From contig JBGSMV010000015.1 of assembly GCA_041739995.1 (NCBI GenBank), positions 32,001 through 96,000 on the forward strand: DNA of 64,000 bases, written 5' to 3'. Source of the stretch: Bdellovibrionota bacterium (GTDB lineage: Bacteria; Bdellovibrionota_C; UBA2361; JBGSMV01). The position numbers were made by a program, and so were the translations under genes. Of this stretch, positions 1,990 through 18,375 are shown piece after piece (the stretch's first letter is position 1; each line of letters opens with the position of its first letter). A model generated the notes under the pieces. The model was given only the letters and a program-made list of their open reading frames with translations. It had not been told where the DNA came from and searched no databases.

Positions 1990-2463
1990 ATGAGTCGATT
2001 TTTCAATGTTCTTTCATTCATAGCCTGGGGCGTTATCGCCTCAAGCGCCCTTTTGAACACCTCTCTGGCCAAGGCCGATGGGATGGGGCCTGGCGGCGAA
2101 CCAGGACTCACGTCGGCGCATGAAAGCGCCCTCGAGGCTGCCCGTCTAGATAAAGAAGCAGCCGAAGCACGCGCTTCCATGGGAGAAAGTCCGTCAATTC
2201 AACAAGTTGACCCTGAAGTTCTATCAGCCGCGACTGGCCATTACGCGCGTGCACGCTCGCATCTGATCGCCGCCATCCGAGAGTTTGATCAGGGCTATAA
2301 GATGGCGAAACCAGACGCGATTTTGAACTCAAAGGAGTGGCGTTCTGACCTGATTTCCAGGGCTGAAGACCTAGAGAGAATTTTGGCCCCGCAGGCGCGC
2401 GCCAGCAAGTTCAGCGTCAAATACGACGCAGACCCAAGGCTGCTAGGGGCTGAAGCAAAGTAA
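1990..2463 (+). CDS. Secreted hypothetical protein, first gene of the T4SS operon
   Basis: ATG 1990 follows GGAG; Sec signal peptide ending ...SLAKA-D; helical mature part. Confidence 0.7.
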   Translation: MSRFFNVLSFIAWGVIASSALLNTSLAKADGMGPGGEPGLTSAHESALEAARLDKEAAEARASMGESPSIQQVDPEVLSAATGHYARARSHLIAAIREFDQGYKMAKPDAILNSKEWRSDLISRAEDLERILAPQARASKFSVKYDADPRLLGAEAK

Positions 2464-2509
2464 CTGGTCAGAACGACTATAGGAGTGAAGACAGAGGAGA
2501 TTCTATTCA

Positions 2510-2947
2510 GTGGACAATGGAGAGGTGATTCCTGGATTAAACGAAGAGTGGACGCTCGGAGGAGCGAAGCTGTTCGAATGGGTCGCAGGATTCATGATGT
2601 TCATCATCGCTTCGGAATTATTCTTCACGAATACGGGAAGAGCGATGCCGCAGTTGATGATGATTTGGGTGAGCACCACGTTTGGACTTGCCGCACTTCG
2701 TCGGACAGTTCCCGACGAGGAGCGCGGTGTACGAAACAAGGTGCTAACCGCCCTTGGCATTTCACCTCCAGGAATCCCCACTCCCGCAGCGCTGCAACCC
2801 TATTGGAGTGGCGCTCCGATGCGCGAGATGGACAAGACTTTGGCGTTTGTCGAGTTACAACTCGATATTGTTTTGGAGACTACTGAAGACGGTCAGCCAA
2901 GATTTCGAGATGACGAAGAAGATCTGAAGGTGTCAGGACGAGGTTAA
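2510..2947 (+). CDS. traL: TraL/VirB3-like inner-membrane T4SS protein
   Basis: Small protein with two TM segments after 'IPGLNEEWTLGG'; lies immediately before traE-traK-traB. Confidence 0.6.
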   Translation: MDNGEVIPGLNEEWTLGGAKLFEWVAGFMMFIIASELFFTNTGRAMPQLMMIWVSTTFGLAALRRTVPDEERGVRNKVLTALGISPPGIPTPAALQPYWSGAPMREMDKTLAFVELQLDIVLETTEDGQPRFRDDEEDLKVSGRG

Positions 2948-2951
2948 GTGT

Positions 2952-3623
2952 ATGGCGAAGGTTTCTCAGCTTACAAAAGATACCGCGCTTTTCGACGCGC
3001 GCGGTGAAACAGACACTATTCGTCTGTGGGAAAACTATCGCGACCAAGCGCTGCTTTGGCGCGGTATTGCCCTGATACAAATCCCTACATCGCTCGTACT
3101 GGTGGTACTCGCGCTCATTCTCTGGACGACTCGATCCGTCACGTTAAACGTTCCCGCGAAGCCACTTCCCGGCATGTATATCGCCAAAGAAATTCCTGAT
3201 ACCGAATTTATCGAAGTGGCCACAGACTTTATTAACCTGATTGGATCTTATCAGCCAAGCACTGCGCGTCGGCAGTTCAACCAAGCCAAGCAACTTCTGG
3301 TAGAGCCGATGCTTGCACGATTCGACAGCGAAATGATGGGAATCGAGCTTAAAGCCATCGAACAGACAACCCGTACTCAATTGTTCTTCGCCGACCCAAT
3401 TGAAACCAAACTCGAGCGCATCGATGACCGCTCAGTGAAAGTCTCCTTTGTCGGCGACAGGCTCAAACTAGTGGCGGGACAAGAGGTTCCTGCGGAGCTT
3501 ACCCGCTTCACGGTAGTACTGACCACCATTCCGCGGCAACAACTCAACCCATACGGCATCGTCATTACTAACGTGCAGTTCGAGAATCTATCTCGTGATC
3601 GAAGCCGCAGAGAAAGAAATTAA
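2952..3623 (+). CDS. traE: TraE-like T4SS protein
   Basis: One N-terminal TM, then 'TLNVP...EFIEVATDFINLIGSYQPSTARRQF' and C-terminal 'NPYGIVITNV'; synteny. Confidence 0.75.
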   Translation: MAKVSQLTKDTALFDARGETDTIRLWENYRDQALLWRGIALIQIPTSLVLVVLALILWTTRSVTLNVPAKPLPGMYIAKEIPDTEFIEVATDFINLIGSYQPSTARRQFNQAKQLLVEPMLARFDSEMMGIELKAIEQTTRTQLFFADPIETKLERIDDRSVKVSFVGDRLKLVAGQEVPAELTRFTVVLTTIPRQQLNPYGIVITNVQFENLSRDRSRRERN

Positions 3624-3639
3624 GTTTTGAGGAGTAGTT

Positions 3640-16672: not shown

Positions 16673-17658
16673 AAGCAATATTTTTTGCCATCCTATTCGC
16701 ACTCGGTATTACTGCATGGAATGGCGTCTTCATAATCACGGAAGGCCAGCAGGCTCTGATTACGCAATTCGGAAAAATTGTCGGTGAGCCCATATCGCAA
16801 GCCGGGCTCTACTGGAAGCTCCCGCTCGTTCAAGACGTACGCGTCTTTGACAAAAGAATCCTCTCTTGGGATGGGGACCCGAATCAAATTCCTACAAAGG
16901 ACAAAAAGTACATCATTGTTGACACTACCGCGCGGTGGCGCATCACCGATCCTGTGCTATTTGCTCAAACCGTTCAGAATGAAAATGGTGTGCGTGCCCG
17001 CTTAGACGGGATTCTTGACGGCGTGACCCGCGATATCATTTCGCGGCATAGCCTGGTTGAGGCAGTGCGAAACACCAATTCAATCCTCGATCGGGTGAAG
17101 GCTAAACAAGAGTTGGCGGAGAACAGTGCCCCCCGCACCGAGCAGGATGAGGCGCTCGAAGTCTTGGAGGTTGAAGAAGAGATCTCTGGTGAAATCGAAG
17201 CCATTCAGGTTGGTCGCGAGCGCCTGAGTGACGCCATTCATGAACGAGCCCGCACTGAGCTTGTGAGTTTAGGGATCGACTTGATCGATGTACAACTACG
17301 TCGCATCGCTTATGAGGAGAGCGTCGAGAGCAAGGTGTTTAGCCGTATGATCTCTGAGCGGCAGCGCATTGCTGAAAAGATCCGCTCTCTTGGTAAAGCC
17401 GAGGAAGCGAGAATCAAGGGTAAAATGAACAAGGATTTGAAAGAAATCGAATCGAACGCTTACAGAAAGAGTGAGGAAATCCGCGGTCGAGCTGACGCGG
17501 AGGCAATAGCGATCTACGCTGATTCTCTTGGCAAGAACCCTGAGTTCTATACCTTCTTGCGTACTTTGGAGGCCTACAAGAAATCATTCGCCGACAAAGG
17601 CGAAATGGTCTTATCGACTGACTCAGAGTTCCTTGGCTTTCTGAAACGCAAGCAGTAG
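16669..17658 (+). CDS. hflC: FtsH protease modulator HflC
   Basis: 'IPTKDKKYIIVD', 'RMISERQRIA', 'PEFYTFLRTLEAY'; ATGA overlap with hflK. Confidence 0.93.
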   Translation: MKAIFFAILFALGITAWNGVFIITEGQQALITQFGKIVGEPISQAGLYWKLPLVQDVRVFDKRILSWDGDPNQIPTKDKKYIIVDTTARWRITDPVLFAQTVQNENGVRARLDGILDGVTRDIISRHSLVEAVRNTNSILDRVKAKQELAENSAPRTEQDEALEVLEVEEEISGEIEAIQVGRERLSDAIHERARTELVSLGIDLIDVQLRRIAYEESVESKVFSRMISERQRIAEKIRSLGKAEEARIKGKMNKDLKEIESNAYRKSEEIRGRADAEAIAIYADSLGKNPEFYTFLRTLEAYKKSFADKGEMVLSTDSEFLGFLKRKQ

Positions 17659-17913
17659 TTAGTCGGAGGAGACTGCCCGCGCGGTTTCGGATCCCTCTGC
17701 TAAACAGTCGCTGAGCGACCACCGCGGCATGGGCGGCGTATCTCATTGTATTTATTGATGTTTTTGCTTTGCCGCTTGCCGCAAATGTGCGCTTCTTAGA
17801 GCACGGCGTTACGATTTCCCCGCATAACTCTTATACAAAACTGGGGCGCGGAATCCTGATAGGGCTTGTGCGTCGTTCTATGATTCTCAATTGTTCGCTT
17901 GGGGGAATGTTAC

Positions 17914-18300
17914 ATGAAAAAGTATTTACTCGATGTTTGCCAGAAGGTCGGTGCGACTCTCGCCTGCCCTTCGCGCGCGCAGGTGCAGTTCGCACTCTTC
18001 GCGTTCGGAATCACGCTTCTCGCCGCTGGTACGGTATCTGGGGTTCTTGCCCAGGTCGGTGACCCGCTCGAGATTGAATATAACGATACTCGACTCTCTG
18101 AGGCGGTGAATGCAATCCTCACCTACCTTGAAGGCTCGTTCGGCGCGTTGATAATGGTTTGTGCTGGTTTGGGAGCAATCTTGAGCTCAGCATTTGGTCA
18201 ATATCGTGCAGCGCTGGCCTGTCTGATCATTGCGGTTGGTGCATTCATCCTCCGCTCGTTCCTCTCTACCTTCTTCAACGATGAACACATCCAAGAATAA
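17914..18300 (+). CDS. VirB2/TraA/TrbC-like T4SS pilin
   Basis: Long signal-like leader (...GVLA-Q), then 'LSEAVNAILTYLEGSFGALIMVCAGLGAILSSAFG..ALACLIIAVGAFILRSFL' with two hydrophobic helices. Confidence 0.7.
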   Translation: MKKYLLDVCQKVGATLACPSRAQVQFALFAFGITLLAAGTVSGVLAQVGDPLEIEYNDTRLSEAVNAILTYLEGSFGALIMVCAGLGAILSSAFGQYRAALACLIIAVGAFILRSFLSTFFNDEHIQE

Positions 18301-18344
18301 GGTCTGAAGAGTAACATACGCGTTGGCTCAACCGAGCTGAACGC

Positions 18345-18375
18345 AAAAAGGGCGCTCAACCGAGCGCCCTTTTTT
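18345..18375 (+). terminator. Rho-independent terminator (bidirectional type)
   Basis: AAAAAGGGCGCTC-AACC-GAGCGCCCTTTTTT. Confidence 0.9.

Follow-up and report, generated by a model that had tools for sequence, protein, structure and literature searches.

A reduced, probably host-owned F-type secretion system with a relaxase-like coupling partner in an uncultured bacterial phylum

Type IV secretion systems (T4SSs) that belong to their hosts, among them Dot/Icm, rvh, the VirB/D4 systems of pathogens and the bacteria-killing X-T4SS, descend from machines of the P and I types; those of the F type, to our knowledge, are known almost only within mobile elements. Legionella Dot/Icm and Rickettsiales rvh are inherited vertically across a large clade and keep their coupling protein together with adaptor partners, and the gene order of SXT-type elements runs traI-traD, traL-E-K-B-V-A, traC. 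Here we analyse a locus from an uncultured Bdellovibrionota bacterium, contained in a stretch of 64,000 nucleotides (the window; G000:C42:32001-96000), which on balance we take to encode a host-owned, vertically inherited and reduced F-type T4SS fed by a complex of a type IV coupling protein (T4CP) and a relaxase-derived protein that we call U688. The genome, G000 (3.81 Mb, 81 contigs), is rated 91% complete, and its contig C42 extends 32 kb to the left of the window, so that 96 kb were examined altogether. The lineage carries the name Bdellovibrionota in NCBI titles, related contigs being labelled Bdellovibrionota, Bdellovibrionales, Oligoflexia or Deltaproteobacteria bacterium, and forms a phylum of its own in GTDB. 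Comparisons covered that whole GTDB phylum (124 species genomes; a single class with 36 families), including 22 related loci with full 10-kb flanks for synteny; genes were named with Pfam and NCBIfam, and divergent genes were judged on scans of their orthologue families.

The machine genes form a plus-strand run at window 1990-18300 that Pfam and NCBIfam recognise in part. This run resembles the combined MOBH relaxase and F-type mating-pair formation (MPF_F) modules of SXT/R391 and IncA/C, as in pM7012, in its TraC, TraE, TraB and TraV families; the T4CP matches SXT_TraD best and, as in pM7012, is divergent from the traL-E-K-B-V-A-C genes. Unlike in SXT and IncA/C, searches for TraF, TraH, TraN, TraU and TraW came up empty, the relaxase homologue has membrane helices at its N-terminus and no catalytic motifs, there are additional lipoproteins, an M23 peptidase takes the place of the transglycosylase, and the locus is fixed in the chromosome of a whole phylum, with at most 30% identity to any plasmid TraC. 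Dot/Icm and rvh come from I-type and P-type machines, whereas the present locus is F-type with a putatively relaxase-derived partner. Another parallel, in layout, is the F-like T4SS of the gonococcal genetic island (GGI), which secretes single-stranded DNA and is likewise chromosomal, with a MOBH TraI beside TraD in divergent orientation (PMC6736028); that TraI is reported to be membrane-associated through its N-terminus (PMC6736028), and U688 is likewise membrane-anchored. The GGI is a horizontally acquired island with the full F gene set and a relaxase with active HD/3H motifs, whereas the present locus has a reduced set, has lost the motifs and appears to be inherited vertically. The machine seems to function like an F-type T4SS but lacks the F-specific gene set, so we do not treat it as a canonical MPF_F member.

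The initial annotation, made from the window alone, had proposed a chromosomally fixed, stripped F-type machine and had set against it an ordinary integrative and conjugative element (ICE) with patchy distribution. The distribution proved to be nearly universal: a TraC orthologue occurs in 40/41 close relatives and in 121/124 genomes of the phylum, and the three genomes without one are 77%, 82% and 89% complete. TraC is essentially single-copy, with double rows explained by contig breaks and by one fragment with a stop codon (G070). Full-length identity of TraC falls with taxonomic rank, from 86% within the genus through 65-80% for members of the same order to 56-63% between orders, and the within-order and between-order ranges do not overlap. 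A library of 1.84 billion cluster representatives contains one full-length in-clade TraC cluster, the next full-length relative being 29% identical; in 72,556 plasmids no TraC covered 80% of the query, the best matches being 25-29% identical across about half of it.

Gene order is equally stable. In 21/22 loci the machine half retains the order sec183, TraL-position gene, traE, traK, traB, traV, lipo195, traC, lipo104, and just upstream on the opposite strand lie T4CP (16 of the 22) and U688 (17); an M23 peptidase gene is present in 19 and a pilin gene stands directly behind it in 15. Profile hidden Markov models built from the orthologues recovered the whole arrangement in two other orders of the class (G051 and G062), with T4CP and U688 on one side, sec183, the TraL-position gene, traE, traK, traB and traV opposite, and then lipo195, traC, lipo104, o177, a bPH protein, an SH3 protein, M23 and the pilin. 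The pilin that had been noted about 8 kb downstream in G000 (17914-18300, with Pfam TrbC/VirB2 in 10/15 members) appears displaced because a 596-aa membrane protein and hflK/hflC lie inside the cluster there. Composition is native: GC at third codon positions of the cluster genes lies within 2 SD of the genome (1462 long open reading frames), codon-usage distances fall at percentiles 0.17-0.92, and regional GC equals that of the contigs. No integrase domain (Pfam), in agreement with the first reading of the window, and no tRNA gene was found in the 96 kb.

These observations bear on whether the locus is simply an ordinary or decaying ICE that happens to lie in the chromosome. The T4CP and relaxase-like genes adjoining the machine genes, and a separate MOBP/Q-type relaxase on the small contig C4, are what such an element might leave; but a locus that is universal, single-copy and syntenic across the phylum, whose identity tracks taxonomy, which has no close TraC relatives outside the clade and no integrase, tRNA or compositional signal, and whose frames are intact in nearly all genomes, is hard to reconcile with it. 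Universality, synteny, rank-tracking identity and native composition together support long vertical residence, and we reject the ICE as almost certainly wrong.

The machine is also reduced, as first suggested. Pfam models for TraU, TraH, TraN, TraF and TraW_N gave 0 matches each in G000 (TrbC_Ftype was not searched), and across the 124 genomes TraU matched in 2 (one genus, marginal) and TraH in 1, below the cut-off.

Where the window misled was at its left edge, which had made traD and a relaxase seem absent. A TraD-like T4CP of 698 aa (G000:C42:29162-31258, minus strand; Pfam TraG-D_C) is encoded 742 bases to the left of the window, and the gene of U688 (688 aa, minus strand), which occupies window 3-1436 and continues left to G000:C42:31370, is cut by the edge so that only its 5' two-thirds lie inside, with T4CP downstream of it; ordinary metabolic genes lie to the left of this pair on C42. 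The locus can no longer be called devoid of mobility genes: T4CP is present in 114/124 genomes and U688 in 113/124, both within the conserved cluster and in most genomes adjacent and co-directional, and a TraG_N-like gene lies at a second site. The T4CP has SXT_TraD as its best family match (TIGR03743, E 1.3e-18), two N-terminal membrane segments and intact Walker A and B motifs; its orthologues share 59-83% full-length identity, with hundreds of residues invariant across orders, and G007 and G122 hold divergent copies at 30-34%. Outside the clade, a stand-alone T4CP gene that is 63.7% identical (residues 86-606) occurs on the linear plasmid pLBX of the cyanobacterium Leptolyngbya boryana (L094; NZ_AP014640.1, 352855-354924), where it adjoins a protelomerase gene with no T4SS genes nearby; this copy indicates that genes have passed between the clade and a cyanobacterium.

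U688 itself escaped every sequence-based assignment. Its profile found 67 matches among 5.8 billion proteins, all in-clade; Pfam and NCBIfam gave no family; Pfam TraI_2 matched 0/18 members when scanned one by one and exceeded its cut-off in 0/124 genomes, with no weak match at any U688 locus; tblastn against the plasmids returned one chance match; and Foldseek searches with both U688 models returned nothing at E <= 0.001. An AlphaFold2 model based on 18 orthologues (mean pLDDT 79.6) places long hydrophobic helices at residues 5-158, together with a linker that is poorly modelled and two folded parts, which we compared with 48,161 representative PDB chains. Residues ~200-446 resemble the HD superfamily, led by YhaM (Z 8.6, 163 residues), with the HD-like fold placed at residues 211-446, and followed at Z 6.8-7.5 by phosphodiesterases, PPX/GppA HD domains and an HD hydrolase. 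For residues 445-651 the match is the TraI_2_C (DUF1528) domain of Salmonella STY4665 (2ipq). When the C-terminal part was folded alone (pLDDT 91.9), 2ipq again came top (Z 7.0, 117/121 residues), ahead of the oriT-bound protein of the pCW3 relaxosome (5vfx, Z 6.1), the winged-helix region of an SaPI replication initiator (5.9) and, at rank 4, Coxiella 3kq5 (4.8); only three chains reach Z 5 in this search, and rank 50 stands at 3.0. The ESM Atlas placed U688 nearest HD-domain clusters (score 0.84), which we treat as a lead only.

This architecture recalls the MOBH relaxases, which comprise an HD-type TraI_2 domain, a linker and TraI_2_C, and of which 3KQ5 and 2IPQ are described as the two solved structures, both from the MOBH3 clade (PMC6736028). 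The account of MOBH3 in that study gives these proteins, among them Salmonella STY4665 and the Coxiella protein, a TraI_2-like region and TraI_2_C without HD and alternative 3H motifs, and its authors suspect 'an alternative function' (PMC6736028). The C-terminal model of U688 has both MOBH3 structures within its first four matches. U688 differs from MOBH3 proteins in having no detectable sequence similarity to them and in its long N-terminal helical membrane region. Across the 18 orthologues neither the HD and alternative 3H metal-binding motifs nor the catalytic Tyr are conserved; a single His (H374) is invariant, and the folded HD-like region has no invariant Asp or Tyr. With moderate confidence, we regard U688 as a MOBH-like and probably MOBH3-like relaxase homologue, a structural likeness that we do not extend to family membership.

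A different role for the conserved residues emerged from complex prediction. T4CP residues 100-600 and U688 residues 190-666, each supplied with its own alignment, were predicted to associate with an ipSAE of 0.85 (0.84-0.86 in three runs), against 0.00 for the best of 3 controls. That mark is met by 116/157 solved complexes and by 2/215 mismatched pairs, a calibration that is rough here because our own alignments were used. The runs had at least 91% of contacts in common, with partner pLDDT of at least 85, and we know of no solved T4CP-MOBH complex that the predictor could have memorised. On the U688 side the predicted interface contains the invariant residues G200/L201, S362, L367, R370, H374, R388, R392 and R626, and on the T4CP side the invariant stretches 160-168 and 192-196. 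Because the invariants form this predicted interface, contact with the ATPase would explain the conservation of U688 better than catalysis does.

The two partners also tend to disappear together. T4CP and U688 are both gone in 9 genomes (g24, 2/2; g26, 3/4; f22, 2/2; G044; G080), T4CP alone is missing in 1 and U688 alone in 2; since related genomes are not independent, we count the co-losses as about three to five events, spread over at least 3 lineages. Eight of these 9 genomes retain TraC, G080 being without T4CP, U688 and TraC alike. In G024 (97% complete) and G118 (95%) the operon is intact from sec183 to M23 or the pilin, and other genes occupy the divergent side. In family f22 (L071, which is G041, and G042; 1.2 and 1.8 Mb), TraC is 56-58% identical and T4CP and U688 were not seen, and in G041 no further cluster gene lies within 10 kb of TraC. 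Because three lineages keep the machine alone, the machine half must also serve a purpose for which the coupling complex is not needed; attachment by the pilus and the export of substrates from the periplasm are possible examples. One could go further and suppose that the whole apparatus is a pilus or adhesion organelle for attachment or biofilm through which nothing is translocated; the intact machine operon and pilin of the uncoupled lineages would fit, and all retained F homologues are pilus-assembly genes in the F system. We consider this quite improbable, as a T4CP that is as conserved as TraC or more, with intact Walker motifs, is hard to explain in an uncoupled organelle.

More weight attaches to an endogenous, GGI-like machine for DNA transfer or release, in which U688 and T4CP would process chromosomal DNA at the intergenic site and export it to the medium or to a cell; we hold this to be possible, though doubtful. 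The layout is that of the GGI, where a MOBH TraI lies beside TraD and divergent from the MPF_F operon, and where oriT occupies the equivalent divergent intergenic position between them (PMC6736028). The C-terminal domain of U688 resembles TraI_2_C and the oriT-binding winged-helix protein TcpK, U688 and T4CP are kept together in ~113/124 genomes, and the 64%-identical T4CP of the cyanobacterial plasmid can be taken as DNA flow between phyla. The divergent intergenic region (1437-1989), between the U688/T4CP operon and the machine operon, contains iteron-like repeats in G000, with a 15-bp unit repeated four times in tandem at window 1577-1636 (consensus AAAC[A/T]G[G/A]GTCAATTC), and in L060, which has unrelated 11-bp and 15-bp tandem repeats in the same place. 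However, repeats and inverted repeats, looked for as marks of an oriT, occur in single loci, and comparison of 10 intergenic regions revealed no inverted repeat or other feature common to them. The HD and alternative 3H motifs, reported as essential for cleavage by GGI TraI (PMC6736028), are not conserved in U688, its sole invariant His sits in the predicted T4CP interface, no Tyr is invariant, and of the mating-pair genes neither TraN nor TraU was found.

A built-in organ of chromosomal DNA donation, in which the motif-less U688, tethered to T4CP at the membrane, hands chromosomal DNA to a minimal F-type channel, seems to us unlikely. If true, it would equip the whole phylum with an endogenous system for 'sex' or DNA injection, whose targets might include other organisms such as cyanobacteria, in view of the 64%-identical T4CP gene on the linear plasmid.

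We return to the reading that we think probable, that of a host-owned and vertically inherited machine fed by a T4CP-U688 complex. By homology, TraV, TraK and TraB would form its outer-membrane core, perhaps with the extra lipoproteins, and the inner-membrane part would consist of TraE, the TraL-position protein and, from another site in the genome, a TraG_N/VirB6-like protein, with TraC powering assembly and extrusion of a TrbC/VirB2-type pilus. The M23 peptidase and its SH3b coiled-coil neighbour, to judge from operon position and intact motifs, would open the cell wall in place of a lytic transglycosylase. U688, as a likely membrane-anchored descendant of a MOBH relaxase that has lost the HD and 3H catalytic motifs, is predicted to form with T4CP a membrane-bound complex that selects and feeds the substrate, and the machine would move macromolecules into another cell on contact. 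As cargo we put protein effectors slightly ahead of DNA. The loss of the catalytic motifs, the missing mating-pair genes and an evolutionary mode like that of Dot/Icm and rvh favour protein. DNA is favoured by the GGI-like layout and by the persistence of a relaxase-derived protein whose domain is of the winged-helix TraI_2_C type, and U688 may still have a DNA-related function.

Several points weigh against this interpretation. No effector has been identified, and nothing shows predation, which the initial annotation had suggested among the uses of the machine. The T4CP-U688 score is a model confidence obtained from our own alignments, and the MOBH link is structural only, at Z ~7-8.6, a range that the tool terms middling. 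The names TraK, TraV, TraG_N and pilin come from sub-threshold sequence matches, and TraL from position alone. The absence of TraF, TraH, TraN, TraU and TraW rests on Pfam models that also missed or barely saw true components here, and very divergent equivalents may be present among the conserved unknown genes.

Full-text literature searching returned no published description of a lineage-wide F-type system, and a 2025 nomenclature review yielded nothing of the kind to a search by terms (PMC12857230). A phylum-wide, inherited F-type machine without TraF, TraH, TraN, TraU and TraW would define a minimal F-type core and would show a relaxase turned into the fixed partner of a coupling ATPase. 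It would also offer a way to approach the lifestyle of an uncultured lineage related to predatory bacteria, and the lineages that have the machine without the coupling complex are natural comparators for finding the cargo.

Within the window, the run that had been read as traL-E-K-B-V-lipoprotein-C was upheld for TraE, TraB, the lipoprotein lipo195 and TraC and, through matches below cut-off, for TraK and TraV, and not for TraL. The operon opens with sec183 (1990-2463, plus strand, as are all machine genes below), a small secreted protein of no known family with a signal-peptide-like N-terminus, which is syntenic in 21/22 full-flank loci and also present in other orders. The small membrane protein at 2510-2947 holds the TraL (VirB3) position: it precedes TraE and has the size and a hydrophobic segment, but Pfam TraL matched 0/27 members of its family and alignment to pM7012 TraL with hhalign was weak (E 0.38), so the name TraL rests on position and size and is not supported by any sequence test. 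TraE (2952-3623) passes its Pfam cut-off (26.4 bits; cut-off 24.8). Between it and TraB lies a TraK-like, VirB9-type gene (3640-4452) that matches TIGR02756 below the cut-off (E 4.2e-4), its family aligning weakly with pM7012 TraK (hhalign E 0.3). TraB (VirB10/TrbI; 4504-5853) is clear, with Pfam TrbI at 49.3 bits (cut-off 35) and the F-type TraB model PRK13729 at E 2.5e-13; the G000 copy bears a Gly-rich insert.

TraV (5915-6400) is a divergent lipoprotein with an LGAC lipobox. Pfam TraV gave sub-threshold matches in 28/29 orthologues (best E 2.2e-4; G000 copy 0.025), and hhalign aligned the family with pM7012 TraV across a conserved C-terminal motif (E 0.0029). The extra lipoprotein lipo195 (6372-6959; lipobox) is possibly DotD-like: 18/30 of its ESM Atlas matches are DotD/TraH (type IVB) lipoproteins (score 0.94), a lead only. 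Sequence did not confirm lipo195 as a DotD, since Pfam DotD matched 1/29 members and DotD in the PDB was matched in the lipobox only; were the likeness real, an F-type core would contain an I-type part. TraC (VirB4; 7012-9756) has intact Walker A and B motifs and scores 53.4 bits with Pfam TraC_F_IV (cut-off 28.1); it matches TIGR02746 at E 6e-62, below the NCBI equivalog cut-off, the general VirB4 family at 1.6e-30 and the ICE-type family at 5.5e-10. Behind it lies a second small lipoprotein, lipo104 (9766-10080; lipobox), first read as a second TraV, which is syntenic and present in duplicate in two further orders.

Two conserved small membrane proteins follow (10121-11354), o177 and a protein with Pfam bPH_2 (10791-11354), both of which occur in other orders and are gone from one large genus. 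The 596-aa polytopic membrane protein (11562-13352) is an insertion specific to G000, outside the ancestral cluster and with a counterpart in 0/22 loci. Next, at 13551-15361, come genes recognised by Pfam and syntenic between TraC and the pilin, encoding a secreted coiled-coil/SH3b protein and the M23 (LytM) peptidase, the latter at 14777-15361 with intact HxxxD and HxH motifs. The housekeeping genes hflK-hflC (15647-17658, plus strand; TIGR01933 and TIGR01932 over cut-off) lie inside the cluster in G000 only, and ispG, another core-type gene, is at 27955-29118, so that the core-type genes initially reported nearby are indeed there. The T4SS pilin has a leader of ~50 aa and a mature part of ~75 aa with two hydrophobic helices, in which Gly, Ala and Phe positions are invariant; its best Pfam TrbC/VirB2 match has E 2.7e-4, and hhalign against pM7012 TraA was weak (E 0.02). 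Profile searches of PDB sequences with the pilin, TraK, TraV, lipo195 and U688 alignments found nothing meaningful.

TraG, which had been listed as absent, has a candidate outside the window. A TraG_N-like protein of more than 1041 aa is encoded at the start of contig C18, its N-terminus continuing on C69. The Pfam TraG_N matches are weak and all below cut-off (C18 protein, E 7.5e-4; a G005 paralogue, 5.6e-6; the G017 orthologue, 0.006); 38/41 relatives have the protein, with 30-46% identity and in most cases encoded away from TraC. One genus (L091; G005:C1, 6324-12795) has five extra genes (256, 362, 321, 480 and 704 aa) between U688 and sec183, of which the 704-aa gene is the TraG_N-like paralogue, shorter and inside the cluster, and to the other four neither a Pfam family nor a G000 counterpart could be assigned. 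On C18, three large family-less proteins (908, 627 and 827 aa) directly follow the TraG_N-like gene (L081; G000:C18, 3376-10586) and could be cargo or accessory parts. They have no counterparts beside the G017 orthologue, whose own neighbours have no G000 counterpart and no Pfam family.

Elsewhere in the genome, contig C4 (L082; G000:C4, 1-7233) carries an AbiEi antitoxin, a DUF932 protein and a MobA/VirD2-type relaxase with DUF3363. This MOBP/Q-type protein is the sole canonical relaxase domain in G000, and the 7.2-kb contig is a fragment of a separate small mobile element. Within the window, at 49124-50488, we also observed a protein with collagen-triple-helix repeats and a BclA-like C-terminal domain, of the kind that forms surface filaments on Bacillus spores.

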